From Schmidtea nova (taxonomy: Eukaryota), in the NCBI GenBank assembly GCA_044892505.1, contig CM097884.1, forward strand, positions 95,976,001 through 96,040,000: 64,000 bases of DNA. The letters run 5' to 3'. Within the stretch, counting starts at the first letter, position 1. Every line of letters starts with the position of its first letter. Position numbers and translations under genes: made by a program. Shown in pieces: positions 16,739-56,224 of the stretch. The notes below the pieces were generated by a model that saw nothing but the letters and a program-made list of their open reading frames with translations, was not told the DNA's origin and did not search any database.

Positions 16739-19035
16739 AATTCTGTTTTTACGCGAACTTATTTTACGCGAATTTGAATTAACGCGATTCAACAAAATTA
16801 TTTCGTTCTGTTTTTACGCGATTTGATTTGATTTAATGCGATGCAAAAAATTTCATTTTTAGCAAAAAAAATTCAAATATAAATTCAATTAAAGTTAAAG
16901 GTAATTTATAATTTTAAGTCCATTCATTTATTACATGCAAATAAATTTTTTTTATAGGAACCTCATTACAATTAATAATGTCAGCTAAAAACAAACGAAT
17001 TGAAAAGCTATTTCTTTGGAAATTAAAATCAAAATTTTGGATAGACTAGCCACTGGAGAAGGTGCTACTTCAGTAGGGAAATATTTTAATTTAAAAGAAT
17101 CAACCATAAGAACTATAAAAAAATGAAGAAGCTATCAGAAAATCTGTGATTGCTGGAACAAATATGAGTGCTCATACAACATCATACACAAGAGACACTG
17201 TAAAAGAGAAAATAGAGAAGGCTCTTGTAATATGGATGGAGGATTGCTCACAAAAACAGATACCTGTTGACGGAAATGGCATAAAGCAGATGGCATTACG
17301 AATTTATAAGCAGATGAAAGAAATGGAACCACAAACATCAGGCCAGAAAGATAAAAAATTTGAATTTTCTGCAAGTACAGGTTGGATGACAGGTTATCTG
17401 CAAAGGCACGCGCTTCATAATATAAAAATTAGGGGTGAAATTGCATCTGCAGATGAGGATGCAGCTAAAGCATTTCCCCAAAACTTGGCTAAAATAATTG
17501 AAGAACGTGGCTACACTCCGGATCAGGTATGGAATGCAGATGAAACAGGCCTTTTCTGGAAAAGAATGCCGAGCAGAACATACGTAGCCAAATCCCAGAA
17601 AATTTCAAGTGGGTTTAAAGTAGCCAAGGATCGCGTGACCTTTTTATTTTGTTCTAACGCTTCAGGAGATCGAATGCTGAAACCTTTACTTATAAATCAA
17701 GCACTAAAACCACGGTCAATGAAAGGTGTAAATTTTAGTAGATTGTAGTCCACTGAACAGCAAATAAAAAAGCCTGGGTGACTACTGAAACTTTTAAGAA
17801 ATGGTTCTTAAAATATTTTGTACCAGAAGTTCGGCGCTATATGAGCGATAAAGGTCTCAAATTCCAGGTTCTATTGATTATAGACAACGCACCAGGTCAT
17901 CCCTATATGGAGGACCCAAATGTCAAATTTTGTTTTTTGCCGCCTAATACGACTTCGTTGATACAACCACTGGATCAAGGAATCATAGCAACCTTTAAGA
18001 CCTATTATGTAAAGCAAACATTCCGATAAATTTTAGATAAATTAATGAATGATGAAAATTTAAAAGTCATGGACGCGTGGAAGAAATTTTTTATTAATGA
18101 CTGCATCAAACATGCTGGATTGGCACTATCAGAACTAAAACCATCAACTTTAAACGCATGTTGGAAGTCCCTTTGGCCAGAATGCGTCAAAAATAAAGAT
18201 CCAATGCCTTCTAATACAGTCGAGTATACCAATATTATAAAATAGCCTTAGCTCGTGAAGTAGGCGGAGAAGGTTTTGATGATCTCTCGTCTGCAGATAT
18301 CGAAGAATTATTAGTGGATAAGGGACTTAGCACTGATGAAATCATTGAAACGCCTGATGCCCAAGAAATAAGTGAAGATGACGTAGAGATTCCTACCTTC
18401 ACCCCAGATCTAATCAAAGAAGGACTGCAACTAGCAGCTAAATTGAGCGATCATTTTAGCAAGCATGATCATATTGAGGAAAGAGCTCGGAAATTTGAAC
18501 GTGACATGAAATTATTAATGGGTAATTATCGTGAATTATATAACAGCATTATCAAACCGAGAACATAACGATTGATAACTGAATTTGTGACTAAACTCAA
18601 AACAAATGAAACATCAACACCACTTGAACATGAAAATGAAGTTGCAAATATTTCTAGTGATGACAGTGACGTTCAAGTCTCACATAAACGAATGCATATA
18701 TCATCAGGAAGTGACAGCAATTAAAAAATATGTTTTATAATATATTTTGCCATTTTTGTTTTATTAAAATGAATTTTTTGTGATATTTTGATAAATAATG
18801 AATTTTTTTGTTAAATTAGTATTTCTTATCATTTTTTCGTTTGTCCTTTAATATTATACTTATAAATATATCTTTTAATAAATATGAAATTTGTAAAACA
18901 CCTAAAAATATAAATTTGTATATTTTAATCACATTATTTTGGTTGATTTTGAAAATTCGGAACCAATCCTATACTTTTTTTCTTTTTTTACGCGAATTTT
19001 CGAGGAACGTATCTATCGCGTAAAAACAGAATTAG

Positions 19036-23529: not shown

Positions 23530-24822
23530 CATATTCCACATGCAAAAATGTAGCAAGCAATTGGATAAACTATATTGAAACCACTTATTCGGATCTACAA
23601 TGAAAATGATATTTTTAATGAGGATGAAACCGGTCTTTTTTTAAATGCCTTCCGGGTAAATCATTTGTGTTACAAGGAGATAGCTGTCAAAAAGGCAAGA
23701 ACAGTAAGGAAAGAATAACCATATTGCTTTGTGCTAATATGTCAGGGACCGAAAAAATTAAATCGTTGGTTATTGGCAAGTCAAGACGTCCACATTGTTT
23801 TAAAAATGTCAATTCACTGCCAGTGGATTATGATTATAACTTAAAGGCGTGGATGAATTCATCCATTTTTGCTAAATGGTAGAATTTGGGAAGCAAAATC
23901 GGAAAGTTTTGTTTTTCTTCGATAATTGCTCAGCCCAAGGAAAAGATGATCTTATATCCAAACTAAATAATATCCGATTGGAATTCTTTCCTCCTAACTT
24001 AACAGCGCTTCTTCAACCAATGGATATGGGTATTATCAGATGCTTAAAAGTGCACTACAGAAATGGAGTAATAAAAGAAATATTTAGGTTTATTGAGAAA
24101 AAAGAAAATTGGCCCCAAATTACCTTATTAGATTGCATAAAACGAATTTCAAAAATATGGGATGTATACATCTCTCCTACAACAATCAAAAACTGTTTTA
24201 GGAAGTCTGGATTCTATGATGACGATGATAATATTCCGCTAATAAATATTATTGAAGCAACGGAAACAAATTATATTTCCCTACGGCTAATATCCAATTT
24301 CGTAGAGGAGTTTACGGATTATCTGGATTGTGATGTTAATGTTGTGTGTGGGGATATTATGACGGATGATGATATCATTGAAAATGTACAGAATCAATCA
24401 ATGTCTATCAGTAATATATCTGAGGATAGGATTGGTGGGGAAGTGGATGAAACGAATTAGTCTTCTGGATTCTCATTTGTGACAAATTCAGAAATGAGCG
24501 ACTGTATTCAAAAGTTAAGAAATGGAATGTTATAGCGATCTTCTGTACCACAAAGATTTTTCAATACGCTCAATGAAATGGATGTTTTTTTAGAAATGGA
24601 TTAAATGTTTGTTCTGCGGCAAATTATTTTTAATTATGTACTTTTAATAAATTTGTTTTAAAATGTAACATGTTTTTGAAATTTTTCTACTTCGGTCTAA
24701 TAATATTATTAAACTTAGTAATCACAAATATAAGAATATTTCCCTGTTTAATTCGATTTCCTGGGTTATTCGATTAATCTTTAAGGTCTCTTGGAGAATC
24801 GAATTAAACAAGTTATACCCGT
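23530..24822 (+). mobile_element. 5'-truncated Tigger-like (TIGD4/6-like) transposon
   Basis: FNEDETGLF, KERITILLCANMSGTEK, FFFDNCSA, LQPMDMGII; 3' terminal structure TCGAATTAAACAAGTTATACCCG-TA. Confidence 0.8.
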
Positions 24823-34155: not shown

Positions 34156-35023
34156 TGTTGGGTATTTGTTTAAAGTCGGTTCTAATTTCTGACTCCTGGT
34201 GTTCTTTTAACAAATAACTGACCCAACACAATAACTTTTATTTCAATATCACAATTTATCACAACGATTGCACAATATAAGAACTGTCTTTTACACTTAA
34301 CTTGAACTGCTTTCAAGTCACTTGCTGCGAGGGATAAGTCTCCCGAAGGAAGATCTCCCTTTCTGGTGCGCAAACAAATGAATTACGTTTTACTCTACGA
34401 CACTACCTTTTCTGACTCTTCTTCTAATTTCAATCTGTTTGCTGAAATTTTATCTCTTCGACCAACTGGCGACACATTGCAATTCGCTTCTGTTTTTATA
34501 TTGCTCCCTCCTTAATGCTTGCTTGTTCTGCCTCCCAATTTGACATTTGAATCCGCGATTCAAATTAAACTGTCATATTGTAATTTAGTAGCTCTCGCCG
34601 TTTCCATATCCTTCAAATTAACTGTCATAGTGTAATTTAGTAGCTCTCGCCGTTTCCACATCCTTGGAGCAAATTGAACTGTCACTTTGCTTGAGCGGGT
34701 TTCTCTCATCTCTCGGGCTCTCCATTGGCTCGGGCTTCCCATTGTCTCGGGCTTTCCATTAGCCAATTAATTCTTAATTAATATTTTAATTTTTTAATTA
34801 TTTCTTTCTAGGGACCCCCCATCGATTTTATTTTTTATTTATTTGAATTCGTCTCATAATTTGGCACACACCCATACCAATTTCCCCCATGATATATTGA
34901 TTTTAAATTTTATTAATTTTTTAATTAATGTTTTAATATTTTAATTAATTTGGTGATTTTTGCAATTTTACTAATTTTATTTAATTACTTTTAAATTTTG
35001 AGTCACTTTGACAAACCCCAACA
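34156..35023 (-). repeat. 3' LTR (868 bp)
   Basis: TGTTGGG...CCCAACA; differs from the 5' LTR at 34485/49297 and 34810/49622 by eye. Confidence 0.97.
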
Positions 35024-35025
35024 TA

Positions 35026-35037
35026 TCTCCCCCCTTT
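35026..35037 (-). promoter_or_regulatory. Polypurine tract
   Basis: AAAGGGGGGAGA on the minus strand, 2 nt before the 3' LTR. Confidence 0.9.
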
Positions 35038-35459
35038 AATTAAGATTCGTCCTCGAATCTATCTTATAATTCAATATATAAATATGAGAGCGCCCCGAAA
35101 GGCAACGTTTACTGCTACTAATAATAATAATTATACTAAATAGATAAATAACAATAACAATAATATTTTGCCCGTCTAAATCTAAATTTACTTTTTCAAA
35201 ATATTTAACACCTCTTTAAAACGAGAAGGGGTGTCAATGACCGGAGACTGTGTTTAGTTTTAAACATACGAATAATTGTATGAAATGTATCAACAAAGTT
35301 GATAATAATAATTATAATATACTTTAAAAAAATAATAATAATAAGTTTACACTAATAATATTGATAATCTTAATTGATAATAATAATTATACTAAAATAA
35401 TAGCAATCTTTACAATAATAATATACAATTTAAAAATAATAATTAATAACAATAATAAT

Positions 35460-35510
35460 ATTGATGATAATAATAATAGTAATATTGATAATAATAATAA
35501 TCTTAATAAT

Positions 35511-35598
<88 letters not shown>
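35460..35598. repeat. (AAT)n microsatellite in the element's 3' non-coding region
   Basis: Long AAT run; a second run at 36216-36260; explains the poly-I, poly-N and poly-L pseudo-ORFs. Confidence 0.97.
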
Positions 35599-35599
<1 letters not shown>

Positions 35600-35916
35600 T
35601 TAATTTGTTTTTGTCGATAATTCGACATTTATTTTTTTCAAGCCAGTGAACTGGCAAATAGAAGAAATAAAATGAGTTTCAAACTCATTCTCGCAGAAGT
35701 ATAAAAAGTAAGTTTTTCATTTTAATTCATTTATTAAATTTTTATATTTTTATTTTATATTTTTATTTTATATTTTTTTTTTATATATATATTTTTTTTT
35801 TTATAATAATTTTTAGATATTGCTATAATCCACGATAACGTTTAACTTTAGATATTTATTGCATTTCTATTGATGTGATTTCACAAATGCATGTTGAATG
35901 TATAATGAAAATGTGT

Positions 35917-36165
35917 NNNNNNNNNNNNNNNNNNNNNNNNNNNNNNNNNNNNNNNNNNNNNNNNNNNNNNNNNNNNNNNNNNNNNNNNNNNNNNNNNNNN
36001 NNNNNNNNNNNNNNNNNNNNNNNNNNNNNNNNNNNNNNNNNNNNNNNNNNNNNNNNNNNNNNNNNNNNNNNNNNNNNNNNNNNNNNNNNNNNNNNNNNNN
36101 NNNNNNNNNNNNNNNNNNNNNNNNNNNNNNNNNNNNNNNNNNNNNNNNNNNNNNNNNNNNNNNNN
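35917..36165. other. Assembly gap (N run) inside the LTR element
   Basis: Run of N. Confidence 1.
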
Positions 36166-36216
36166 AATTAAATATTTATTAGCAACTGTTGTAGTGTGTT
36201 CGAGAAAAATTCCATG

Positions 36217-36261
<45 letters not shown>

Positions 36262-36668
36262 TACCTGAATCTACCTCCTTATCTCTTACTAATAATAAGT
36301 GACGGTCACCTTCTTCAGTCCCTGTCCAGGGATCCAAGCCCCAGTGACTGAAATTGGACACTTTCATTTTATTATTATGTCCATATAAATAATAATATGA
36401 TTCTGATGCTAATAATAATAATAAATTCTAAATTTTAAATTATTGATAATTTTGATTTATTTTCATAATTTTTATTATTGATTTTTATATTTCATTACAT
36501 TTTGCATTTGAAATTTTTATTAATAATTTGGGGTTGCCATAAACTTTGAATTTTATTATTTTATTATTTATTTATTTTTTTTTAATTGGTGGGATGCCAT
36601 AATAAAGGAGACAAAATTCACAAAATGTTTTATTTATAATTGTATCAATATATATATATATATAAAGT

Positions 36669-38075
36669 TTAATTAAATTTTAATTCCAAGCTCTCTTCTC
36701 CACACCAATATTGGACGATTGTTCCTTTTCGCACATATGTCTTTCCTGCATATGTTATCGAATTTTCAATTTGCAAATTTGAACCCACTTTTCTTTTCCT
36801 AGTTTCTTTGGCTGTTGAACCCTTTATAAGTGTTGACTTTGCTCTTCCAATAATTGAGCTTGTAAATATTGCCAAACTTTCTTCAATGGGCTCCAGAATA
36901 GTTTCCTCTGCCAACTTCAATTGTATTTCAATTTCCATTATTGATGGTTCTTCTATTGTCAGGTCCACTGTTGTTGTCATTTCCGATGTGCTCTGTGTTG
37001 CTCGTAAATTTCTGTATTCCTCCAGCGAATATATTTTTGAGGGCTGTTTCCTGGGAATCATCACATCATCGATCCATTGACTCTCCACTTTCAAATAAAC
37101 TTTTCTAATGCTTTTCACATCTTCCAACGCGGTGTGGATGCCTGTTTGTGTTTTTTCTCCGCATAATTCTTCAGTGATTGTTTTTAACTTAAACCATTCT
37201 CCTTTTCGGCTTACATTCATTGATTTTAACACTTGCGCTGCTGCCAAATCTCGAATGCCATATAATTTATTGATCCAAATTCCAAGATTATTCAATTCCG
37301 CTTGGAGATCATGACCAATCAGTATTTTTCCTATGGTCAACCTCTGAATATCTTTCATCTCCTGATATTGATCTGCCTGATTTCTACTGGCCACTTCCGT
37401 TATTCCGTGGATTTTGGAATTAAAATGTCTTACTTTCCCTCTTGGTGTAATGTATGTATTTTTTATAATTTTTCCATAATAATTTAGGATTGCGATTGAC
37501 AACGGAATCATTTTTCCGCTTTCGGAGCTTCCATATTCCGCATCGATAAACAAAATTCGATTACGGATTTCTTCTAGATCCATCTCCTTTCTAACAAATG
37601 AGAGCTTCCGTTTTAACATTTCATCTGAAATTGCCATCAAATCCTCCTCATTAGCTTCTGTCGGATGTGTACTTGGAATTTCTCCAACTTCATTTTCAAT
37701 TCTGGTTTCGATAACCATTATGGCATCCTCGTTTGCGGCTCGCAACAAATTGAACATTATTTCCCTCTGCAGTTTCCACGTAGTAAATTTTTTTAATTCC
37801 TTCCGAATCTGATTCCTTTCGTTTAGCATTTCTACCGTGCCTTTTATTATGTGGAGATAATATTGTTCTTTTCTTGCCAATTGCATTTCCTCTGATAACT
37901 TCATTTTGGTGTTTCTGTGCAATTTTAGAATTTGTATTTTCATTCTTCTGTCATCACTTCGAAGGTAGTTGGGAATTTGCAGATTGTTGTTGATCTGGAA
38001 TTTTTGTCCGGCATGGCTTCTGCTGAGTCTGGCGTAACTGTCGTGTACCGATCTTGGCCATTGTAATTGTTCCAT
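36669..38075 (-). CDS. 468-aa protein with an ISG20/REX4-like DEDDh 3'-5' exonuclease domain (about 37090-37560)
   Basis: ExoI ILFIDAEYG; SIAILNYYGKII..TYITP..V..FNSKIHGIT; ExoII GKILIGHDLQAEL; IRDLA; ExoIII HTALED; intact ORF inside the LTR element. Confidence 0.88.
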   Translation of the reverse strand: MEQLQWPRSVHDSYARLSRSHAGQKFQINNNLQIPNYLRSDDRRMKIQILKLHRNTKMKLSEEMQLARKEQYYLHIIKGTVEMLNERNQIRKELKKFTTWKLQREIMFNLLRAANEDAIMVIETRIENEVGEIPSTHPTEANEEDLMAISDEMLKRKLSFVRKEMDLEEIRNRILFIDAEYGSSESGKMIPLSIAILNYYGKIIKNTYITPRGKVRHFNSKIHGITEVASRNQADQYQEMKDIQRLTIGKILIGHDLQAELNNLGIWINKLYGIRDLAAAQVLKSMNVSRKGEWFKLKTITEELCGEKTQTGIHTALEDVKSIRKVYLKVESQWIDDVMIPRKQPSKIYSLEEYRNLRATQSTSEMTTTVDLTIEEPSIMEIEIQLKLAEETILEPIEESLAIFTSSIIGRAKSTLIKGSTAKETRKRKVGSNLQIENSITYAGKTYVRKGTIVQYWCGEESLELKFN

Positions 38076-38491
38076 TTGCTAAAATTATTGAATTTTAATT
38101 TATGTTAATTTTAGAATTTGAAACTATGATCGAGGTTGGGTATCCAAAGGATATCGTCTCAATCAATAGTTGTATAAATAAAAATATTTAATTAATTACC
38201 TATCTATTTGAATTTGAAAAATTCGGACTTTAAAAAAAATTTGAAATTCAATGAGTTTTTGAAATTTTAAATCTAACGGTTTAACCCTTATCCTATATAC
38301 CCTCTTAAATTTCCTTCCCCTATTCAATTTCCTCTTTTTATCCAATCAAATTCATTTGCCAAGCGATCCTTGAAAGCAGTTTTACACCAAAAATAAAAAG
38401 TGTTCCATAAAATGTAATGTTATCAATGAATAAATAAATAATAAATTCTACACTACTGTTACTTATATTGCATGCAGAAATCATTGTCTTA

Positions 38492-39680
38492 CTACACAAA
38501 TGTCTCATCGAAGACAAACCAAGGTCTCGAAGGTTCGGATTGATTTGCCGGAGATTGAAATGATTTTTCGAATATGCACAATACGATAGCCATGATAACT
38601 GTTAGAATTACTGCAAAAGAAATGATGATTATAATCAATGTTATGCACATTTTTTCATTATTCGTTTTCAGGAACAATTTAGTTTGATTATTTACAATTG
38701 ATTTATTGATAGGAATGTTATTAAGAAATGTTGTGGTTTGATATTGGTGTGAATCGTTTGGGTATGCTTCATCATATGAGACTTGAATGAGTTTATTTTC
38801 GACAAACGTTATCTGCCATTGATTTGAATATCGAGTACGACGATGATATTTGATTTTTACGAGAACTAATTTCGACATTGGGTTTGATTGCGATTGTTGA
38901 AAAATTATTGTTTGAGATTGTCTTTTGCTGTCTAGAATTGCTTGCATTTTCCCATAACAATATATAACCGCCTTTTGATTAGGGTCTGTTTGCCTGGTGA
39001 CTTTTATTGCTTGATGGTAGATGTGAAATTGAACTCTATTCGTTTCATTAATTAATGTTATCGTTTGTTGACTGGTGTGAACTTTAACCCATTGATTCTC
39101 CGTATCGGTGCCATTTTCATATAAAGTCTTCTCATAATAGTGAATCACAACATTATAAGTCTGAAATAACTTTAAATTAATATAATTTATGAAGGGTTTT
39201 CTACTATTCAATGTGTCTATTGCATAATTTTGGAAAATCGTTTTTACTTGTTGGGATTCTTGGGGTTCCCAATATACATTAATACTATTTATCGAAGGTT
39301 CAATTGATACCAAATTTTCCCACTTTTTTGTCCAAATTTCTAGGCGTATTATATTACGTATTTCCGTAGTATTCTTTTTAGGATCTAGCTGTGCTACCCG
39401 CCAGGGATATTTGTAATTCATTGTCAGATGACGTGCAACATGATAATTATTATTATAATCCAATTTCACCGGGGGTTCAAAATAATTTAATAAATTATTT
39501 ATTTCTACTTCCTCATCTTTTTCACAGAAATAAATCCACACAATCTGAGTACATGTTGCAAATGTATTGATTCTCTCTAACAATGGGATTCGTTTTGTTG
39601 CAACCGATGGAAGAAATCGTACTGCATTCGTACACAAAACATTCAACATCATTACTGTAGAAATTAGTAAAATTTTATTA
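38492..39680 (-). CDS. Putative second type-I membrane glycoprotein fused behind the integrase
   Basis: Signal-like KILLISTVMMLNVLCTNA; ~330-aa ectodomain with sequons NTT, NGT, NET, NKS, NQT; TM ITLIIIIISFAVILTVIMAIVLCIF; short tail; family unrecognised. Confidence 0.7.
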
Positions 39681-42600
39681 ATGTAGCTTGATGGGGCTGG
39701 GTTTCTATTATACCTCTGTTTGATTGCTTCATCTTCCTTCCGTTTTGATCGTAATGGATATTGTTTTAACTCTTCCACCGGCACCTTTTTACAGCGGTTT
39801 ACATGAACAACTATTGTTCCAGCTTTTTTATTATTCTGTGGACGCAACTTTAGATTAGTCTCTGTAGCATCACATACTACATATGGTCCTTTAAAAGGTC
39901 TTTGCAGTTTCACTGACAATCCTTTAGTCGGCTCTGGCTTATTTACATACACTAAATCTCCAATTTTAATATCATGCGCATGTGCGCGTTTATCATAGCA
40001 CTCTTTATAAGCTTCTTGATGGTGTTTTATTTTAAGACCTGCTTGAACCCATACTGACTGCAATCTCTCTTGCATAATTACTTTATAATCGGATACATCC
40101 ATATATTGGGAAATAGGTGACTGAAATTTCAAATCAATTGGCATATTATTACGTCGTAAATACATAAGGTAGAAAGGTGTTTCACCGGTACTTTCATTAC
40201 CTGCATTCCGATATGCAAATAGGCATGGTTTAATATACAAATCCCAATCTTTTTGCTTTCTATTTACATAAGAAGATATCATATTTATTAGTGTTCCATT
40301 GAATCTTTCCACTAAGCCATCTGTTTGTGGATGATAAGGTGATGTACTTATTTTCATTATTCCGAATAATTCTGTGATCGATTTGAATAAATCACTTTGA
40401 AAATTTGTTCCTTGATCTGTAAGTAATTTTTTTGGTGCTCCATATCGAAAGATTATGTTTTCAACAAATATTTTTGCTACTGTCTCTGCTTTTTGATTTG
40501 GCATAGGATAAGCTTCTGGCCATTTTGTTAAATAGTCACAAAAGACAATAATGTATTTATTTCCATTTGTCGTTTCTGGTAGTGGACCCACGATGTCCAT
40601 TGCCGTCATTTCCATCGGCGCTTGTGGTACTGGCATTGGCTTTAAAGGAACTTTAATTTTCTTTCCTGTATTTCTCCTGGTTAGACATATTTCACACGTA
40701 TGACACCACTGTTTGACATCTTGCTCCATCGTGTCCCAATAATATTTTTGCTTTAATCTCGATAATGTTTTACGTGCTGATAAATGTCCTCCCAATGCTC
40801 CATCATGATACAACAACAGTAATGATCTTCGATATTTTGTTGGAACGATAATTAATAAATTTTCATTTTTTACACATTTTAGCAAACCATCATGGACAAT
40901 ATATTTATGTTTTTCCTCAACAACATGTTTCCAGTCACTCTCCTTTTTGATGGTGACAGCATGTTGACGTAGCTGATTTAATTCAATATCATTTTCTTGA
41001 TCATTTTGTAATTCTTTTAGATTGTTTACAGTTTTAATTGCCATAAATATTGTATTTTCATAATTTATTTCACTTCTACCATCATTATTTTCGTCATTAA
41101 TTCTCGATAACGCATCGGCATTTGCATTTGACTTTCCTGAACGGTACTTTATTTCGAAATCATATTCTTGCAGCGCAATTGACCATCGGATTAATTTGCT
41201 GGCTGAATCTCTGTGCTTCATGAGCCATTGCAGTGGATTATGGTCCGTAAAAACAATAAACTTTCTACCGATTAGGTGTTGTCTGAAAGTAGTTATTCCA
41301 TATACCAACGCTAAAGTCTCTTTTTCGATTGTAGAATAATTCTTTTCATGTGGCTTTAATGTTCGACTAGCATAGGCAATTACATGATCTTTTTCACCTT
41401 CCACTTGTTGACCCAACACTGCTCCTAATGCGAAATTACTGGCATCTGTCATTAATATGAACTGTCTCTTAAAGTCTGGGCATCTCAAAATTGGTTGTTT
41501 TAATAAACTTTCTTTCAGAATATCAAATGCATTTTGTTGAGCCGTCATCCATTTAAATTTAGTTTGCTTTTTAAGCAGTATATTCAAAGGTTGTGCTACA
41601 TGCGAAAAATTTTTAATAAATTTTCTATAATAACCTGCTAAACCAAGAAATTGTCGAACTTGATCAACATCTTTTGGAATTGGATAATTTTTGATTTTCT
41701 CTACATTTTCGGGATTCGGCTGTAATCCACGTCTTGAAATAATATGACCCACATAAACAACTTCAGACTTTCCCCATTCGCATTTTGATGGTTTTATTTT
41801 TAAATTTGCTTTTAATAATCTTTTGAATACTGTTTCAACATCTTTTAAATGCTCTTGAAAACTGCCTGAAAATATTATTATGTCATCAATATAGACTAAT
41901 GCATGTGGAATGTCGCGTAATACGAAATTCATGCCTCTCTGAAAAGTAGCAGGTGCTCCTGTTAATCCAAATGGTAAAACGTTAAACTCGTATAGGCCTT
42001 TACCATCTGAAAATGCAGTTTTTCTCTTGTCATCCTCTTTTACTTTAAATTGGTTGTATCCTTTATTTAAATCAATTACTGTGAAAAATTGTACCTCGCC
42101 CATTTGATCAAACATTTCCTGTGGAACTGGAATAGGATATGTATCTTTTCTCGTGACCTGATTCAACTTTCGATAATCTACACAAAATCGCAAATCTCCA
42201 TCTTTCTTTTTAACAACCACTATCGATGATGAAAATGGTGATGAACTATCTCGTATAATATTGAACTCTTTCATTGCTTTAATTTGCCGATCACTTTCCT
42301 CTTGATGAACGTACGGAATCCTATACGGTCTCAATTTGATAGGAGTTTCATCAAGTAATGGTATCTCATGCTCAATTATTTGAGTAAGTCCCAAATCATA
42401 TTCATGCCTAGCAAATACACTTTTGTATTTCATTAATAGGGCTGTAAATTCTTCTCTTTGCTCATCTGTCAAATCCTTGCTTGTAACTTGAGGTTGTTTA
42501 TAAATTTTAATGTTCCTTGGTAACTTTTGAACTTCTTCAGCTTCAATTTTTATCAATTTCCCCAATTTTGTTTTGGGTTGCATCTGGATAGATTTTGTGC

Positions 42601-44158
42601 CACAATTTGCTATTCGTACTGGCACTAATTTATTTTTGACTCTCACTAACTCATCACACATAGGTAAATCATATTTTTCTATTAGTTTGTGATTTGGCTC
42701 AAATATGCATTCCTCATCTGGTGCATTTATAACATCTGCATAATATATTATTTCGCTTTTTGATGGTACTTCAACCATTTGATTTAGAAATACTTCTCCG
42801 ATCTCCTCAATAACTTCACCAGTTTGACCTTTCACTAATTTTCCGGTATTTAGATCGAGTGAGATTCCTTTTAACTGCTCCATAACGTCCATACCAATAA
42901 GGCATTTAACCGGGCTCTTTCTCATTACCACTACCCAGTGGGATATCTCTTGATCTCCAATCTTTAATTTGGCTTGTACTTTCCCTATGATATTCAGCAA
43001 ATTATGCGACATTGATTTAATACGCTTATTCGTTGGTTTCATTTCTTTAATTTCTTGATACATTAATAATTCCTCTGACACAATAGTATGACTTGAACCT
43101 GAATCTAATAAGGCTTGCACTTTTCGATCATTAAATAAGACATCAATCCGAGGTTGTTTTCCTCCCGTTACCATCGTCATTAGTGCATAGCTGCATGGTA
43201 ATCCGAGCATATTTTTGCGTTCAATTTCTGCACTCGTTGGTTCAATTTTCTCTGTTCCACTTTGAATATCATCTAATGGTTTCATCTCTTTTAACTTTTC
43301 TCCGGGATATACAGGTGCTGTCGGTACAAATGTTGGAGTATACCATCGAGTTAGTGTATCAATTCCGCTTAATTTTGGCATTGGTTCTAGTAAGAATCTA
43401 GTTTCTGGTTCTGTTTTATTTTTCAATATACCCTTCCGATAATATTTTGACTCGGTATTACCTCCATCATTATTATTGTTCTGACTATTGATCTCTTCCG
43501 ATTGACATAATGATTCCTCACTTTTTTGATCCTTTCTCAATTGTGCTCTTACATTTGCCATTTCTTTGTATTGATGATTTGTAATGAAAAATCTGGCCAA
43601 AAATGGGATACAACCGATTATTATTTTCCATGACCATCCGGAAATAGCGTATATTCTATGTGCTGACAACACTTGCGATACTATCACTTTCATTGTCACT
43701 GCAATTACGTAGATTCCAATTAAACCGGCACAAGCTTGTCCTAAGAACATAAATTTACCCCAAATCTTTTCCATTGTTTTATACGTGGCTCTTTTAAAAT
43801 GATCGGGCGTCAACAAATACTCATAATTCACTTTTCCCTCTCCATTGGGTAATATTGTATCAACCATTTCTGAAATTACCCTTTCCTTTTTCGATGGAAA
43901 TAACAAATTTCTTTGAGCCTCTTCGATATCTTCGCTTGCATACAAACCCGTTTGTGCCATTTTATTTAATGATGTGAAATTTACTAAATATTCTAAGTTC
44001 GTTAATTCTAATTTATCGGGTGTTTTTACTCCTCTGTAATCTGGTAACGCTATCCATGAATCTGGCGTTAAACGATACAACGGCGCAAGTAGTCGATTGC
44101 ATTGTAATATTTTCGGTTTCGTCTGTTCTTCAAGCAATATTCGAGTAATTGGTTCCAT
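38492..44158 (-). CDS. pol: 1888-aa polyprotein segment: env C-terminus/TM, PR, RT, RNase H, IN, second membrane protein
   Basis: LLDSGS (43105); LRFCVDYRKLN, LPFGL, YIDD (41890); TDAS RNase H; HHCC, MDIVGP, TDQG, VERFN, GPY integrase; in frame with both upstream ORFs. Confidence 0.97.
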   Translation of the reverse strand: MEPITRILLEEQTKPKILQCNRLLAPLYRLTPDSWIALPDYRGVKTPDKLELTNLEYLVNFTSLNKMAQTGLYASEDIEEAQRNLLFPSKKERVISEMVDTILPNGEGKVNYEYLLTPDHFKRATYKTMEKIWGKFMFLGQACAGLIGIYVIAVTMKVIVSQVLSAHRIYAISGWSWKIIIGCIPFLARFFITNHQYKEMANVRAQLRKDQKSEESLCQSEEINSQNNNNDGGNTESKYYRKGILKNKTEPETRFLLEPMPKLSGIDTLTRWYTPTFVPTAPVYPGEKLKEMKPLDDIQSGTEKIEPTSAEIERKNMLGLPCSYALMTMVTGGKQPRIDVLFNDRKVQALLDSGSSHTIVSEELLMYQEIKEMKPTNKRIKSMSHNLLNIIGKVQAKLKIGDQEISHWVVVMRKSPVKCLIGMDVMEQLKGISLDLNTGKLVKGQTGEVIEEIGEVFLNQMVEVPSKSEIIYYADVINAPDEECIFEPNHKLIEKYDLPMCDELVRVKNKLVPVRIANCGTKSIQMQPKTKLGKLIKIEAEEVQKLPRNIKIYKQPQVTSKDLTDEQREEFTALLMKYKSVFARHEYDLGLTQIIEHEIPLLDETPIKLRPYRIPYVHQEESDRQIKAMKEFNIIRDSSSPFSSSIVVVKKKDGDLRFCVDYRKLNQVTRKDTYPIPVPQEMFDQMGEVQFFTVIDLNKGYNQFKVKEDDKRKTAFSDGKGLYEFNVLPFGLTGAPATFQRGMNFVLRDIPHALVYIDDIIIFSGSFQEHLKDVETVFKRLLKANLKIKPSKCEWGKSEVVYVGHIISRRGLQPNPENVEKIKNYPIPKDVDQVRQFLGLAGYYRKFIKNFSHVAQPLNILLKKQTKFKWMTAQQNAFDILKESLLKQPILRCPDFKRQFILMTDASNFALGAVLGQQVEGEKDHVIAYASRTLKPHEKNYSTIEKETLALVYGITTFRQHLIGRKFIVFTDHNPLQWLMKHRDSASKLIRWSIALQEYDFEIKYRSGKSNANADALSRINDENNDGRSEINYENTIFMAIKTVNNLKELQNDQENDIELNQLRQHAVTIKKESDWKHVVEEKHKYIVHDGLLKCVKNENLLIIVPTKYRRSLLLLYHDGALGGHLSARKTLSRLKQKYYWDTMEQDVKQWCHTCEICLTRRNTGKKIKVPLKPMPVPQAPMEMTAMDIVGPLPETTNGNKYIIVFCDYLTKWPEAYPMPNQKAETVAKIFVENIIFRYGAPKKLLTDQGTNFQSDLFKSITELFGIMKISTSPYHPQTDGLVERFNGTLINMISSYVNRKQKDWDLYIKPCLFAYRNAGNESTGETPFYLMYLRRNNMPIDLKFQSPISQYMDVSDYKVIMQERLQSVWVQAGLKIKHHQEAYKECYDKRAHAHDIKIGDLVYVNKPEPTKGLSVKLQRPFKGPYVVCDATETNLKLRPQNNKKAGTIVVHVNRCKKVPVEELKQYPLRSKRKEDEAIKQRYNRNPAPSSYINKILLISTVMMLNVLCTNAVRFLPSVATKRIPLLERINTFATCTQIVWIYFCEKDEEVEINNLLNYFEPPVKLDYNNNYHVARHLTMNYKYPWRVAQLDPKKNTTEIRNIIRLEIWTKKWENLVSIEPSINSINVYWEPQESQQVKTIFQNYAIDTLNSRKPFINYINLKLFQTYNVVIHYYEKTLYENGTDTENQWVKVHTSQQTITLINETNRVQFHIYHQAIKVTRQTDPNQKAVIYCYGKMQAILDSKRQSQTIIFQQSQSNPMSKLVLVKIKYHRRTRYSNQWQITFVENKLIQVSYDEAYPNDSHQYQTTTFLNNIPINKSIVNNQTKLFLKTNNEKMCITLIIIIISFAVILTVIMAIVLCIFEKSFQSPANQSEPSRPWFVFDETFV
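39780..40830 (-). CDS. Integrase domain (HHCC, DDE, GPY/F)
   Basis: YHDGALGGH...CHTCEIC; AMDIVGP, LTDQGTNF, GLVERFN; FKGPY. Confidence 0.97.
41100..42400 (-). CDS. Reverse transcriptase and RNase H domains
   Basis: PYRIP, DLNKGYNQF, YIDDII, FLGLAGYYRKFI, FILMTDAS, EKETLA, TDHNPL, NADALSR. Confidence 0.98.
42850..43160 (-). CDS. Retropepsin protease domain
   Basis: VQALLDSGSSHTIV ... CLIGMDVM. Confidence 0.95.
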
Positions 44159-45450
44159 AAATCGTAGCTTACCCCCAACACTTACGGGTAACTCATTTGT
44201 GCATTTTTCATATTTTGCAATTTTTACAGCGATTTCCTTACATTTGTAACTATATAATGCTTCTCAAAAAATTCTCGCAAATACGCCATTTTCCGATATC
44301 AGCATAGGGGCTACTAAGTTCGGGTTTGTGACTGCCATTGCCATTCGATTCCGAAGAATGTCTTTATTCAATTTACAATCATTAAGAATCATTTCTCTAT
44401 AAACATTCTCCATGATGTCTTGACTAAAATGAAATAAATAATCGATTTTGTTATTGAAATAATGCGTTAATTTAATGTCGTTTACATGAATTTTAGTTTT
44501 TGCGTCTTCAACTATTCCTTTTGAAACATAGACGCCTTTATAATTTGTTGTATATAATATTCGCCCACATTTATTCGTAACTTCCTTTTTTATAAAACGC
44601 ATGCTATCCGTTGGCGATGTTGACATCAGAACTGCACTCATTTTCCTGGTCATTATTGGAGTTGATTTAATTGCTTCTTTTGATTTATAATTCATGCTAA
44701 AACTATCGGGTCTTTCCTGAAATTGTTCTCCGATTATTTCTTTAAAATTCATAGTTTTTAGAAAAGCCAAATTACATTCATTTACCTTTACATTATAAAC
44801 TAAAATCGACTCTCCTGTTTGACAATTTGTCTGTTTCATATTACAGAATGGATGTGTCTGTAATTTTCCCGTATCGTCATCAAATGCTCCTTCGAACTCT
44901 CTAAGTTCCGTAACGTACTCCTCAAATACTACCGTTTTATCCACCATTTTACCATTCATTTTATACGGTTCGCCTTCGCAATCTCCATTTGCTTTCATTA
45001 TCCCTTTCACAACTACTGTCTCTCGTATTCTGTGATTTAATTTAGCTTTCAATCGGATTTCCGAACTTATTTTTAATTCTCCTGTTTGAAATGCTGTCAA
45101 ACAATTTTCTGGAAAAATCTCAACTGGTCTCGGTATTGCATTTACTTTTATTAATGACGAGTGGCTCCACTTTCCACAATAAAACACAAACGTTGTATGT
45201 TTCACGCTACACTCTCTAACTTTAGTTCGTCGTAAATCTGATTCTTGATATACGTGGTATTTTACATCATTTTCAACTTTTAATTTACTCGGATAGGCAT
45301 CTGGGCATTCTGACATATCTACTACTGAATAAATTTTTCCCATTTCCGTTTGGGAGCAATCATATGCAACTAATGACGTCGCTTGTGCAATAACTGTACA
45401 CAGGATAATCATTGTAAACATCAACCATGGGAATATTCCTATTCTCTTCG
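43560..45450 (-). CDS. env: Envelope fusion glycoprotein, Chuviridae G-like (class III-like), with one in-frame TGA at 44264-44266
   Basis: Signal peptide then LVAYDC; YCG..SH; G.CEG..Y; YFNNKIDY; C..N...L.N.MA...P; ARIF[*]EALYSYKC...C.NELPV...FMEPITRIL; GLYASEDI; WGKFMFLGQACAGLIGIY TM; GWSWK. Confidence 0.85.
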
Positions 45451-47647
45451 TTTTCAGCCTGACTTTATCCCACAATTGTCTTGTTCCTTCCTCATTTTCT
45501 TTCGTATCTAGTGGTGGGCACAATGTCATCCAACCACCCTTTTCTTTTATCCATTTGCGCAAATATTCATTTAGCATTCTGGCTGCTATATCTATTAAAT
45601 CATCAAGCTTTTCCGGTTCTACAAACGCATGAGTTCCTATTTCCAAAATTGCATATGTCAGACTCATCAATACTACCTCCCTATTCACTTCCTTTTGGAT
45701 CAACTCTTCAAAAACCTTTCTCTCACAGAAATTATTTCCTCTACCAAATCGTTGTACTACTTCAGGAAGCCTATTTTTCAATTCTTTGACTATCTCTTCC
45801 ACATCTTCCTCCACTTGCAATTCTATCTCAAACATTGGATATATCGTTTTAAGCAGATGCTTTAATATCTGTTTTGTTTCATCTACTTCTTTTTCAACTC
45901 TTACCAAATTTCTCTTTATTTCATACAAAGTTCTAGGTTTACCATTTTTATTGCTAACTTCATTAAGCACATCTGATTTTTGTCTTTCCGCTTCCTGTAC
46001 CTGATCTCTCACTATTGGATTCTTCTGAAAACTGCCATCTATAATAGTCTCATTTTCTTCAGTTTCTTCGATTTCCTCCTCCCCTTCGTCTGACTCTGAA
46101 TTCTCTAATTCTTCCATTCTTCCTACTTGTACTTCCTTCACCGCTACTATTCGATTTTTTACATATCCATTACTTCCCTCCATACTTAAATATCCCTCTT
46201 CATTTACTTCTAACGGTAAACACCCGCAATCATATAGATACTCGTCATCATCTAACAGTTCCCCTTTATACCTCAACGTTATGATTCCATCCATTCCTAA
46301 CATTTTCGAAGCTCTTCTACGTACCCTTTTTACCTTTGTGCACCAATGCTCTTCAGTATATTCCGTCTTTCCACGCTCTTCATAATCTATTGCTATAACT
46401 AAACGATTCTGCTCGACTCTGTCTTTTCTAAGCTCTTTACCCATTTTCCTCAATAAGCTTTTAAGCTTTTTACTGTATCTAGTTCTCCCAGATAAATATG
46501 GTCGTATTAAATTCGCGATTTCTACTTTATCTTTAGATTCAAGCTCACATTCCTCGATCATTTTTAATTTGTCATTTATTTCATTTTCATCTCCACTATA
46601 TAATGCATCATTTAACTCTTTTATAATTTCTACTGGATCTCTTTTAATTGTCACACAATCTTTTTGTAGCGTAATTATTTGCAACTCGTTTTCATTACCT
46701 GGAATAAACCCACAATCTATTAAATATTCGTTATCTTCTAATTTTTGATTTTTAAATCTCAACTCTCTCATTAATCCATCTCGTTTGTCTGTTAATTTAT
46801 TTTTTAAATCTCTCACACAATCATTGACTTCACAACGTATACAATTTACACTTTTATCCCTCTCATCAACAACATCAATAAAAATAAAATCTAACCATTC
46901 CTTTTCTCGAAACATTTTCCCAAATATTTTCATCATATCTTTTATTTCGTCTCTATCCTTTGAATTCACTTCACAATAACTTGCACATACATTAATTACA
47001 CTTTTTAATTTCCTCATATTCAATGACATTTTACTCAATTCTTTTAGCGAACTCATTATTTTGGATGAATCTTCTCTTCTCGCTTCTATTAATTTTTCAA
47101 TTCTTGTTATAATCATTGTCGATAAGTCAATTCCTAGATCATCTTTGACACATTTTCTTTTCGTTTCAGTTTCCATCATTCCTTCTGAGTCATACATCAT
47201 TTGATTATTTACTTCCTCATCGGATTCAAATTTTGACATAAGCCGATCCAAACGTCGACCTATTTCTTTAACTTCGCTTTCAATTCTTTCTTTGAAATCA
47301 TCTGGCTGAACAAAAGCTACATTATCATGCATGGATTTATCAGTTTGGAATCTGATTGTTTTCTTTAGAATTGGTCTTTGAAATTTATCATTATTTCTGG
47401 GGCACGACCTGGCCATATGTCCATAACCTCTGCATGAGTGGCATTGGATTTGTCCTTGCAAATTGACTTTGTCCCTCTGCGGTGATGGTGATGTCGATGG
47501 AGATCTTGACTTGGCATAACAATTTCTCGATACATGTCCTTTCTTTCCGCAATTGAAACAATGCATATTATCATTTACTCGTGGAGTACTGTCATTAAAT
47601 TTGTTAAACATTTTATCATCATTACCTTTCATCCAATCCGGCCACAT
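44264..47647 (-). CDS. 1127-aa segment: 2 zinc knuckles, coiled coil, 2 ubiquitin-like domains, Bcl-2-like domain, env ectodomain
   Basis: CFNCGKKGHVSRNC and CHSCRGYGHMARSC; Ubl, BH1/BH2 and env motifs as listed in the separate features. Confidence 0.9.
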   Translation of the reverse strand: MWPDWMKGNDDKMFNKFNDSTPRVNDNMHCFNCGKKGHVSRNCYAKSRSPSTSPSPQRDKVNLQGQIQCHSCRGYGHMARSCPRNNDKFQRPILKKTIRFQTDKSMHDNVAFVQPDDFKERIESEVKEIGRRLDRLMSKFESDEEVNNQMMYDSEGMMETETKRKCVKDDLGIDLSTMIITRIEKLIEARREDSSKIMSSLKELSKMSLNMRKLKSVINVCASYCEVNSKDRDEIKDMMKIFGKMFREKEWLDFIFIDVVDERDKSVNCIRCEVNDCVRDLKNKLTDKRDGLMRELRFKNQKLEDNEYLIDCGFIPGNENELQIITLQKDCVTIKRDPVEIIKELNDALYSGDENEINDKLKMIEECELESKDKVEIANLIRPYLSGRTRYSKKLKSLLRKMGKELRKDRVEQNRLVIAIDYEERGKTEYTEEHWCTKVKRVRRRASKMLGMDGIITLRYKGELLDDDEYLYDCGCLPLEVNEEGYLSMEGSNGYVKNRIVAVKEVQVGRMEELENSESDEGEEEIEETEENETIIDGSFQKNPIVRDQVQEAERQKSDVLNEVSNKNGKPRTLYEIKRNLVRVEKEVDETKQILKHLLKTIYPMFEIELQVEEDVEEIVKELKNRLPEVVQRFGRGNNFCERKVFEELIQKEVNREVVLMSLTYAILEIGTHAFVEPEKLDDLIDIAARMLNEYLRKWIKEKGGWMTLCPPLDTKENEEGTRQLWDKVRLKTKRIGIFPWLMFTMIILCTVIAQATSLVAYDCSQTEMGKIYSVVDMSECPDAYPSKLKVENDVKYHVYQESDLRRTKVRECSVKHTTFVFYCGKWSHSSLIKVNAIPRPVEIFPENCLTAFQTGELKISSEIRLKAKLNHRIRETVVVKGIMKANGDCEGEPYKMNGKMVDKTVVFEEYVTELREFEGAFDDDTGKLQTHPFCNMKQTNCQTGESILVYNVKVNECNLAFLKTMNFKEIIGEQFQERPDSFSMNYKSKEAIKSTPIMTRKMSAVLMSTSPTDSMRFIKKEVTNKCGRILYTTNYKGVYVSKGIVEDAKTKIHVNDIKLTHYFNNKIDYLFHFSQDIMENVYREMILNDCKLNKDILRNRMAMAVTNPNLVAPMLISENGVFARIF
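45520..45930 (-). CDS. Bcl-2-family-like domain
   Basis: BH2-like YLRKWIKEKGGW; BH1-like VFEELIQKEVNREVVLMSLTY (NWGR degenerate) with plausible spacing; basic stretch and hydrophobic helix follow. Confidence 0.75.
46180..46405 (-). CDS. Ubiquitin-like domain 2
   Basis: TKVKRVRRRASKMLG...ITLRYKGELLDDDEYLYDCG resembles ubiquitin QRLIFAGKQLEDGRTLSDY. Confidence 0.6.
46665..46895 (-). CDS. Ubiquitin-like domain 1
   Basis: EVNDCVRDLKNKLTDKRDG...RELRFKNQKLEDNEYLIDCG...LQII resembles ubiquitin VEPSDTIENVKAKIQDKEG...RLIFAGKQLEDGRTLSDY...LHLV. Confidence 0.7.
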
Positions 47648-48577
47648 TCACTTTGGACTTCTCTGCATGTTCTCGTTGAACCAACATTGATTACTAGTAT
47701 GACCCATCTTTTGACAATTATTGCATTGAATTGGAGTTGGGCTTCTTTGGGATCTGTTTTTGAGCCAACATTGATTCACATGATGTCCCATTCTTTGACA
47801 ATGGCTGCATTGTATTGGCATTTCTTTCTCCTCCCTTGGAGCATTAGTTGTTTGACTTGATTGGAATTTGGCTTTGAATTTTGGCGAAGGACTGCTATAT
47901 TGTTGAAATCTGTTGTTCTTCTCAGGAGTTACTGATCGTTCTTGTTTTTGTTCCATCATTGCAAACGATTCTGAATTTGATTGTGTACTTTTCAAATTAA
48001 GCTCAATTTTCATGGCCTTTTTGATTAATTCATCGAAGTTGTTGAAATCGACATAGCATAAAGCCTTTTTGATTTCCTTTTTAACTCCCGATAAAAATTG
48101 ATCTTGCAACAGTTCCCTTACTTGCTTTGCCACTTCTGGTTGATCGGGTTTGGTTTCGAAAGCTTTTTCTGCAAGAGTCGTTAGATGATAAGCAAATTCA
48201 CTTACAGATTCATCAGATTTTTGCATTCGATTGTAAAATTTTTGGCGCATAATCCTTTTGATATCTCCTCCGATCAATTTAGCGGCTAATGAATCTTTAA
48301 GTCTCATCCAGTCATTTCCGATTGTCCTTTTGTCAATTTGTTGCCATACTTCTCTGGCTGCTCCCTTTAAATACAAGGGCAATCTTTGTATCATCGTGGC
48401 TTGGCTCCATCCATACGCATTGGCATACATATAATAGTCTGCCATGAAATCGACAAATTCAACTGGATCTCCTCCATATTGGTTAACTGGTAGCTTTTGA
48501 CAATTAGCGAGATCATTGCCATTTCCTGCGTGACTTGTCGACATCGGCGCTTCATCATTACTATTTGAATTGCTCAT
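47648..48577 (-). CDS. gag: Gag (capsid domain plus 2 CCHC zinc knuckles), 309 aa
   Basis: LPLYLKGAAREVW, FYNRMQKSDESVSEFAYHL, DQFLSG; CSHCQRMGHHVNQC and CNNCQKMGHTSNQC; its TGA is followed immediately by an in-frame ATG. Confidence 0.95.
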   Translation of the reverse strand: MSNSNSNDEAPMSTSHAGNGNDLANCQKLPVNQYGGDPVEFVDFMADYYMYANAYGWSQATMIQRLPLYLKGAAREVWQQIDKRTIGNDWMRLKDSLAAKLIGGDIKRIMRQKFYNRMQKSDESVSEFAYHLTTLAEKAFETKPDQPEVAKQVRELLQDQFLSGVKKEIKKALCYVDFNNFDELIKKAMKIELNLKSTQSNSESFAMMEQKQERSVTPEKNNRFQQYSSPSPKFKAKFQSSQTTNAPREEKEMPIQCSHCQRMGHHVNQCWLKNRSQRSPTPIQCNNCQKMGHTSNQCWFNENMQRSPK

Positions 48578-48946: not shown

Positions 48947-48964
48947 ATCACGTCGGGCTCACCA
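48947..48964 (-). promoter_or_regulatory. 18-nt primer-binding site, tRNA-Trp-like
   Basis: TGGTGAGCCCGACGTGAT, 3 nt from the 5' LTR; one mismatch to the common metazoan tRNA-Trp end ATCACGTCGGGGTCACCA. Confidence 0.85.
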
Positions 48965-48967
48965 AAA

Positions 48968-49835
48968 TGTTGGGTATTTGTTTAAAGTCGGTTCTAATTT
49001 CTGACTCCTGGTGTTCTTTTAACAAATAACTGACCCAACACAATAACTTTTATTTCAATATCACAATTTATCACAACGATTGCACAATATAAGAACTGTC
49101 TTTTACACTTAACTTGAACTGCTTTCAAGTCACTTGCTGCGAGGGATAAGTCTCCCGAAGGAAGATCTCCCTTTCTGGTGCGCAAACAAATGAATTACGT
49201 TTTACTCTACGACACTACCTTTTCTGACTCTTCTTCTAATTTCAATCTGTTTGCTGAAATTTTATCTCTTCGACCAACTGGCGACACATTGCAATTTGCT
49301 TCTGTTTTTATATTGCTCCCTCCTTAATGCTTGCTTGTTCTGCCTCCCAATTTGACATTTGAATCCGCGATTCAAATTAAACTGTCATATTGTAATTTAG
49401 TAGCTCTCGCCGTTTCCATATCCTTCAAATTAACTGTCATAGTGTAATTTAGTAGCTCTCGCCGTTTCCACATCCTTGGAGCAAATTGAACTGTCACTTT
49501 GCTTGAGCGGGTTTCTCTCATCTCTCGGGCTCTCCATTGGCTCGGGCTTCCCATTGTCTCGGGCTTTCCATTAGCCAATTAATTCTTAATTAATATTTTA
49601 ATTTTTTAATTATTTCTTTCTGGGGACCCCCCATCGATTTTATTTTTTATTTATTTGAATTCGTCTCATAATTTGGCACACACCCATACCAATTTCCCCC
49701 ATGATATATTGATTTTAAATTTTATTAATTTTTTAATTAATGTTTTAATATTTTAATTAATTTGGTGATTTTTGCAATTTTACTAATTTTATTTAATTAC
49801 TTTTAAATTTTGAGTCACTTTGACAAACCCCAACA
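48968..49835 (-). repeat. 5' LTR (868 bp)
   Basis: Near-identical to 34156-35023. Confidence 0.97.
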
Positions 49836-54776: not shown

Positions 54777-56224
54777 CCCTTTGGCAGACAACGACGTGTT
54801 TATTGCGTCATGTGGTGGTTTTTTGTAGGACATGACGTGATATCACGTCAATATTTGCAAACGCAATAAAGCCATGACATCATGTCATTGACATGATATA
54901 ATGTCTTTGTTTTTATATGTTTACTTAGGAATTCAACATATTGTGTGTCCCATTAGAAGACATATAAGCAAAATGTGTGTCCCGTCAGAAATATTTATAA
55001 AGTATATTGTTTAACGTGAACATGTTTGGTCGTGAAATTCTTTGATATCACCATGACGTGATATGCCATCACAGATCCATATGAAAATTATTAATTATGC
55101 GACAAGTGTTCAACAAATAACATATTTTTGTGTTAGTCGTGAAAAACGTATTTTTAATTATTTTTATGTTTAAATTGATTTTATTTAAATTTATAAATAT
55201 CTAATATAATATAGATATAAATAAAAAATAACTAATTTACATTTATGAATAATAAAAAATTATAGAAATGGACCAATATGAAAAACAGAGACAAAATTTT
55301 AAAACTTTTTGAGGATGTTGGTGATGATTTGGATGAATCTGATATATCTGAAGCTGATGCATTCAGCGCAGGAAGTGAAGTGGACCCAAATTATGTACCG
55401 GAAGAAACTTCTGATGAAGATGATGATGATGAAAATATTCAAAATGGTGGAGCCGTTGTCCTTGATGTAGTTGTCATTCCAAATTTTAATTTTGACCATA
55501 CAACTGCAGGAATTCAGATACCAATTGAAGATAATGCCACACCGGTAGAAATATTCGAAAAGTAAATTACATCACAAATATTGTCAATGTTGGTACATTC
55601 AACTAATGAGTACGGGTCAAAAATATGCAAGACAGATAAACCTAAGTTAAGATATTCGAGAATGGCTGTTTTAACCCAGTTGATACTATTGAAATGAAGA
55701 AATTTTTTTGTCTATGTTTTCTACAAGGCCAAATCAAAACACAGAAGATTAGACATTTATTTTCATCAAATCCATTATACCATCATCCAATTTTTTCAAA
55801 AACAATACCTGGAAGGTGGTTTGAGCATATTCTGCGTTGTTTCAATATATTTCTGAATGGGGAGAAATATAAATGTAAAAATACCAACAAATTATTAAAT
55901 ATGTTGTGTCAGAACTTCAGAAAGATTAATAGTCCTGGTGAATGTTTGACTTTGGATGAATTCTTATTATTGTTCAAAGGTCGTCTTCGTTTTGAACAAT
56001 ATATACCATGCAAACAAGAACGATATGAAATTAAATTTTTTGAACTTTGTGATCTTAATGAATATGTTTATAGTATTGAAATGTATCAAGGAAGGTTTGT
56101 AGAAATTGACAACTCACAAAATGTTTCTTTATTTAAAATATATAGTATTGTTATGAAATTAATGAGCAATTTGTTACACAAAGGACATATATTATTTATG
56201 GATAATTTCTACAATAGTTTTTGA
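54777..56224 (+). mobile_element. piggyBac transposon, 3'-truncated and degenerate
   Basis: TTAA then CCCTTTGGC left end; acidic N-terminus; TLDEFLLLFKGRLRFEQYIP and FMDNFYNS (PGBD4-like); right TIR not found. Confidence 0.85.

Follow-up and report, generated by a model that had tools for sequence, protein, structure and literature searches.

Nucleases with a DEDD active site are already known from retroelements. The rotifer elements Juno, Vesta and Athena/Terminon carry a DEDDy-type ORF3 (PMC5408684), and this ORF3 of rotifer LTR retrotransposons is cited again in PMC6338049. ORF3 encodes a DnaQ-like 3'-5' exonuclease in a reading frame of its own within an LTR retrotransposon; its DEDD set has changed to DEED, it groups more closely with copies from other elements than with host genes, and it has no assigned function (PMC5408684). 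The ORF reported here, from a planarian Gypsy element, resembles it in all these respects. Unlike the rotifer ORF3, which is RNase D-like and replaces env (PMC5408684), it is of the DEDDh type (His314) and ISG20/REX4-like, is joined to a beta-barrel, occurs alongside an envelope glycoprotein in the same element and has relatives that are catalytically dead and under selection.

The element itself can be compared with Burro, whose members are targets of piRNAs and PIWI proteins in planarians (PMC8532177). Burro/GYPSM1 encodes one polyprotein with Gag and zinc knuckles, a BCL2-like region and a mononegavirus-type Env in frame between Gag and Pol, and the PR-RT-RH-IN domains are followed by downstream accessory ORFs (PMC6431247). 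Our element shares this plan, and ankyrin repeats are found in its relative L102. Burro proper exceeds 30 kb (PMC6431247), whereas our element measures 15.7 kb with 868-nt LTRs and has no MATH, BIR, ankyrin or dUTPase match in Pfam. By its architecture, the element appears Burro-like; the description of Burro in section 7 of PMC6431247 names no exonuclease or barrel ORF. A further comparison is CERV, a nuclear protein made from a spliced mRNA of the C. elegans element Cer1 with a shown role in RNA export (PMC10309623). Our ORF would likewise be a candidate nuclear accessory protein of an LTR retrotransposon, a likeness of functional analogy, with no homology seen. In the literature searched, we found no cupin/AlkB-DEDDh ORF in retroelements and no earlier account of this two-domain DEDDh family.

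The element spans 15,680 nt of the window, the 64,000-nt stretch of Schmidtea nova DNA that was analyzed (Table 1). Its PR-RT-RH-IN order, LTRs, 4-bp target-site duplication (CTAC at both outer LTR ends), primer-binding site and polypurine tract identify it as a Ty3/Gypsy element. Gag, the BCL2-like region (a match below the Pfam cut-off), the glycoprotein and Pol all lie in one reading frame. The window copy has in-frame stops at 47648-50 and 44264-66, and sister copies are open across both points. These two stops occur despite LTRs that differ at only 2 of 868 positions, and the window copy may have been mobilized in trans by other copies. The roughly 390 residues after the integrase (38492-39650) have a hydrophobic stretch at each end and no Pfam match; they change fast (55-60% identity where RT retains 93%) and possibly form a second membrane protein.

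The accessory ORF lies between pol and the 3' LTR, from which it is separated by a long AT-rich spacer with (AAT)n arrays (35040-36668). We take the primer-binding site to be that of tRNA-Trp; there are no tRNA genes within the 64-kb window. Elsewhere in the window, the ORFs at 13132-14100, 17164-17748, 23876-24460 and 55694-56224 resemble DNA-transposase fragments by eye, presumably pogo/Tigger-like and piggyBac-like.

Table 1. Features of the Gypsy element and its accessory ORF, in window coordinates and in the direction of the element.
Feature	Position	Strand	Description
5' LTR	48968..49835	-	868 nt, TG...CA
Primer-binding site	48947..48964	-	
Gag	47648..48577	-	Retrotrans_gag, zinc knuckles; ends at in-frame stop in window copy
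Middle part of polyprotein	44264..47647	-	zinc knuckles, weak BCL2-like match, first half of Monjiviricetes-type fusion glycoprotein; ends at second stop
Last part of polyprotein	38492..44263	-	second glycoprotein half, PR, RT, RNase H, integrase, ~390-aa tail with hydrophobic segment
Candidate internal promoter	38292..38347	-	GATTGG (CCAAT reversed, 38342-47) and TATA-like GGGTATATAGG
Candidate leader intron	38079..38200	-	GGTAAT donor 38194-200, AG just before ATG
RNA hairpin	38122..38171	-	19 pairs, inside candidate intron, conserved
Accessory ORF	36669..38075	-	468 aa, comprising beta-barrel, linker, DEEDh exonuclease and a tail modeled with low confidence
Barrel	37671..38075	-	residues 1-135, predicted double-stranded beta-helix (cupin/AlkB-type 2OG-oxygenase fold)
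Exonuclease domain	37065..37562	-	residues 172-337, ISG20/ISG20L2-like
D178 codon	37542..37544	-	
E180 codon	37536..37538	-	
E260 codon	37296..37298	-	
H314 codon	37134..37136	-	
D319 codon	37119..37121	-	
C-terminal region	36672..36800	-	RKRK cluster (residues 426-429, candidate nuclear localization signal) and short beta-rich C-terminal motif
Polypurine tract	35026..35037	-	before 3' LTR
3' LTR	34156..35023	-	866/868 identical to 5' LTR

A first-pass annotation of this DNA had described an uninterrupted ORF for an ISG20/REX4-like DEDDh exonuclease carried by a retroelement, with all three Exo motifs recognizable. The frame is open over its full 468 codons, and the stretches FIDAEY, GHDLQAEL and HTALED are present, with D-x-E (D178, E180) in Exo I and H-x4-D (H314, D319) in Exo III. 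The Asp of motif II is, however, a Glu: E260 aligns to Asp in ISG20 and in 18 of 18 cellular-type rows, so that the window ORF is a DEEDh variant. The annotation stands as to nuclease type, motifs and the retroelement, here a complete LTR element, and needs correction in its catalytic set. In an alignment of 80 rows, the 62 element-type rows comprise 27 with E-H-D, 18 with D-H-D, 13 that have lost the catalytic residues and 4 that are partial. A like alternation of Glu and Asp at motif II has been described for nidovirus ExoN (PMC6693484), which by analogy would make Glu compatible with catalysis; E260 could nevertheless reduce activity in this scaffold.

Similarity searches placed the domain in the same group. 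With phmmer against solved structures, residues ~170-340 matched ISG20L2, ISG20 and SDN1 (E 2.6e-5 to 4.8e-4). The search for RNase_T suggested in the first-pass annotation gave a divided answer, the window ORF having no Pfam match of any kind and 53 of its 80 aligned relatives matching RNase_T. The best RNase_T match in the genome (L051, G000:C2:259.417 Mb) belongs to a single-frame cellular gene that we labeled ERI1-like by eye.

A first structural model, built from 9 sequences, reached an overall pLDDT of 54.5 and was confident over residues 1-130. With 80 sequences, the model of residues 1-345 reached pLDDT 95.9 and pTM 0.90, which predicts rigid packing of the barrel, the linker and the nuclease into a single unit. 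Residues 172-337 are predicted to adopt an RNase H-like DnaQ fold closest to ISG20 (Z 18.6, rmsd 2.0 Å over 159 residues), followed by PAN2 (Z 15.2), SDN1 (Z 14.4) and DnaQ epsilon (Z 13.9), with RNase D at Z 9.3. The best structural matches are human ISG20/ISG20L2, REXO4, PAN2 and Arabidopsis SDN1. The domain differs from ISG20 in its sequence (~18% identity), the Glu in motif II, the N-terminal barrel, its separate clade and its being encoded by a mobile element. With nidovirus nsp14 and arenavirus NP ExoN, it shares a DEDDh/DEEDh nuclease of the virus-borne kind whose motif II alternates between Glu and Asp (PMC6693484). Unlike these viral nucleases, its best matches are in the cellular ISG20 group, with a weak structural match to viral ExoN (Z 9.5), no Cys/His zinc-finger set among the conserved columns and a catalysis that is dispensable.

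The N-terminus had been read as a coiled coil at first pass. Both models, from 9 and from 80 sequences, give a beta-barrel instead, whose matches are cupins and AlkB-type proteins at Z 7.5-9.5. They include ALKBH6 (Z 9.0 over 133 residues) with plain cupins on a par (Z 9.0-9.5 over ~94 residues), viral AlkB-bearing polyproteins and the N-terminal domain of vaccinia C16, all double-stranded beta-helices; the scores are middling, and the modeled fold is tied between cupin and AlkB. We take the closterovirus polyproteins among these matches to represent AlkB domains. P35, N36, H75, S/T99 and E123 are conserved, H75 being the sole conserved His (48 of 53 rows). Unlike AlkB and other 2OG-Fe(II) oxygenases, the barrel lacks the HxD/E...H metal site, HxD/E occurring in 3 of 53 rows at scattered positions; no Arg column that could supply the 2OG-binding Arg exceeds 37% among the aligned rows, and Pfam gave no match to the barrel in any of the 80 rows.

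A search of the same genome with the nuclease domain returned at least 150 matches (150 of 2,242 candidates were scored and all matched), 62 of them at 90% identity or above. They fall into several families (A, A2, B, C, D, E and F, near 100, 90, 80, 73, 72, 70 and 53% identity), and the presence of the ORF in other copies is thus confirmed. RT or integrase lies upstream of the gene in 18 of 20 ten-kb stretches from families A2-E, one of the two misses coming from a stretch on the wrong side, and in 3 of 5 F-type stretches. LTR pairs that are 99.6-100% identical flank one copy each of families C, E and F. Of the 153 loci fetched, 9 contain the primer-binding 18-mer; among them are members of families B, C, F and G, the last of which is described below. 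Over the first half of the ORF, family A2 (L031, L032, G000:C1) is near-identical to the window family, but its tail is only ~72% identical, a pattern that suggests recombination inside the gene. A candidate fusion of the accessory ORF to the integrase (L002, G000:C1:92.18 Mb, a 2633-codon frame) was rejected: it seems to reflect an internal deletion confined to a single copy, which joins the integrase core in frame to residue 68 onward of the accessory ORF.

The catalytic residues are conserved among the near copies. The best 30 were ranked by score, so that the set is skewed to intact copies; of the 28 with a full start, 26 keep all five residues, as do all seven family representatives. For the nuclease domain, pairwise Nei-Gojobori estimates on real copies could be made in 10 of 21 family pairs and gave a dN/dS of 0.067-0.212; the other 11 were saturated at synonymous sites. 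The N-terminal domain gave 0.07-0.62 where estimable. These values are far below 1, so neutral evolution is not borne out and the accessory gene is kept by purifying selection. In three shared pairs, dN was 0.18, 0.20 and 0.41 for the nuclease vs 0.037, 0.043 and 0.087 for RT, about a five-fold difference. Such faster change than in RT is what would be expected of an accessory gene and not of a core replication enzyme.

Selection also acts on versions that have lost the active site. Searching with a dead relative, we identified family G, another large one, in which 63 of 97 matches have open frames of 711-726 aa. The family G ORF lacks equivalents of D178, E180 and H314. Its elements share the Gag-Env-Pol order and primer site of the window element, measure 14.6-14.9 kb, have LTR pairs 98.7-98.9% identical and carry a single barrel-nuclease ORF at the same position, the stretches fetched containing no other. 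The dN/dS in family G was 0.058-0.175 in 15 of 15 pairs from 6 copies. Because this dead family is under equally strong purifying selection, catalysis is dispensable in part of the lineage, whereas the protein itself is retained. Further dead types (H-K) are present in the same genome, and the tree described below requires two or more changes to account for the loss of catalysis.

Dead and active forms also occur together. In a metagenomic Gypsy element (L102, one of five loci taken from 495 pattern matches), two paralogues stand in tandem after a polyprotein with ankyrins, the dead one first and the active one second. The same locus (L102:1-11518) has a second protease-like domain and ankyrin repeats after the integrase and a tandem repeat between the paralogues; its last ORF is ubiquitin-like by eye and has no Pfam match. 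Two divergent dead barrel-nuclease ORFs of the planarian genome (L118/L143, G000:C1:264.55 Mb; L153, G000:C1:264.84 Mb) lie next to fetched sequence in which we saw neither a related RT nor a related integrase, and are possibly solitary or domesticated copies. The core that is shared and selected is the barrel together with the nuclease fold, and binding rather than cutting is therefore probably the common function.

Our preferred reading, put forward tentatively and as not quite probable in itself, is that the ORF encodes a nuclear RNA-binding, optionally RNA-trimming, anti-silencing factor. The anatomy of the protein would also fit a Rev/CERV-like handler of the element's own RNA; the link to silencing, which draws on analogy, is plausible. 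As a Rev/CERV-like regulator, the protein would bind a cis element such as the leader hairpin and promote the export of the ~14-kb genomic RNA, its 3'-end processing or the control of its splicing, with an optional nuclease. Such a role, for which CERV of Cer1 provides the precedent (PMC10309623), seems to us somewhat unlikely, if not far behind the preferred reading. The region upstream of the ORF has several features in its favor. One is the hairpin inside the gene's own candidate intron, in which 6 of 19 pairs are altered on both sides among seven copies; these seven sequences are related, which limits the power of the covariation. In the alignment, 93.8% of its cells are paired, vs 23-50% in slid controls, and 11 of 500 shuffles reach its pair count. 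The hairpin is absent in family F, which speaks against a regulator of this kind.

A candidate leader intron with a GGTAA donor ~125 nt upstream is found in families A-E and is absent from F; in families A-E, in G and in L102, the likely ATG is immediately preceded by an AG, which also fits such a regulator. The TATA-like sequence noted at first pass about 220 bp upstream is in place (38292-38302, 226 nt before the ATG), and in the 330 nt examined, all seven family representatives have a TATA-like motif and six of the seven a reversed CCAAT-like motif. In an RNA run from another organism, 195 of ~12 million records matched the element at 92% likeness and 137 matched a 4-kb stretch at 80%; they fall on both strands and show no splice joint or start site.

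The gene keeps its post-pol position in distant families, and its tails are rich in basic clusters, both of which fit a Rev/CERV-like protein. Such clusters are present in 27 of the 43 family tails, where shuffled tails average 10 (0 of 500 shuffles reach the count), in a test that treats related tails as independent; a stricter pattern occurs in 21 of 43 against 9.5 and misses the window ORF's own tail. A regulator of the element's own RNA does not, however, need the fast amino-acid change or the duplication into dead and active forms.

Alternatively, the protein could act on other host pathways, for example by competing with, or acting as a decoy for, host DEDDh nucleases, RNA-surveillance factors or dsRNA sensors, or by degrading host RNA. 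Other cargo in this lineage, BCL2-like and ankyrin (PMC6431247), and the maintenance of dead forms by selection are in keeping with such a target. So is the beta-rich C-terminal motif, which lies beyond a low-confidence linker and is common to families A-F; a profile of it, however, recovered only its own 6 seeds among 43 tails. Overall, we consider this improbable.

Proofreading, or the trimming of cDNA or RNA during reverse transcription in support of a large genome as in nidoviruses, is very unlikely. The DEEDh motif is that of coronavirus nsp14 (PMC6693484), and the active-type elements (the window element and four others measured) span 15.7-17.9 kb vs 14.6-14.9 kb for two dead-type elements. 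The nuclease is, however, a separate ORF outside the polyprotein, and its rate of change is about five-fold that of RT; in nidoviruses, by contrast, ExoN and the polymerase are equally conserved (PMC7968707). Dispensable catalysis also argues against proofreading: family G is young, abundant and of similar size, and has only the dead, still-selected version. The first-pass suggestions that the nuclease helps maintain a 15-kb genome or trims cDNA are both weakened by this family.

To place the family among cellular exonucleases, we built a nuclease-domain tree with IQ-TREE from 65 rows, hand-picked from a 144-row FastTree set with five dead types of the same genome added; the tree has no outgroup and no known root, and named vertebrate ISG20 sequences were left out. 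A branch with 100/99 support parts 41 element-type rows from 24 cellular-type rows, some named RNA exonuclease 4, that include the genome's own intron-bearing REXO4. The comparison with host REXO4 proposed at first pass thus sets the element-type clade apart, where genomic context is known for the rows of this genome and for L102/L103 and the other rows are assigned by tree and barrel. This split points to an old mobile clade and not to a recent capture. When 1.84 billion representatives were searched with a profile, 43 clusters scored at E up to 1e-30; the barrel was seen in 52 of the 150 matches listed, and none of 10 barrel-bearing clusters looked up had an informative name. Word-index searches recovered few relatives (1 match in one, 8, mostly cellular, in another). 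A recently captured host REXO4 carried as a passenger, which the REX4/ISG20 type of the domain might have suggested, is refuted by this clade and by a dN/dS far below 1; the barrel fusion, too, which is found in none of the cellular-type rows, speaks against it.

We return to the anti-silencing factor as the preferred reading. The protein would be expressed from the internal promoter through the short leader intron and imported into the nucleus via its basic cluster. There, it would bind RNA and optionally trim it, weakening host small-RNA silencing of the element. RNA 3'-end binding would be the function shared by active and dead forms, and trimming an add-on in families such as that of the window element. 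We favor small-RNA silencing as the target because the gene changes at an accessory-type rate, has its own candidate promoter and nuclear signals, and lies near host-regulatory cargo. It is also favored by the structural kinship to ISG20 and to SDN1, a nuclease that degrades small RNAs, by the PIWI control of Burro and by two analogues: arenavirus ExoN, which suppresses innate immune signaling, and Maelstrom, an RNA-binding derivative without the DEDD residues (PMC7968707). A more specific version, in which an old enveloped Gypsy lineage encodes its own piRNA/RNAi suppressor whose pseudo-AlkB barrel reads RNA ends or modified nucleotides while the ISG20-like nuclease trims them in some families and sequesters them in others, is possible, and we hold it as doubtful.

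Taken together, LTR elements have recruited DEDD nucleases at least twice, as DEDDy enzymes in rotifers and as DEDDh enzymes here, and the present family adds an undescribed barrel-nuclease fusion. The protein of this young and abundant element family is predicted to be soluble and well folded in two domains, and since active and dead variants occur naturally, under equal selection, the question of how animal retrotransposons evade PIWI silencing becomes testable on the isolated protein.
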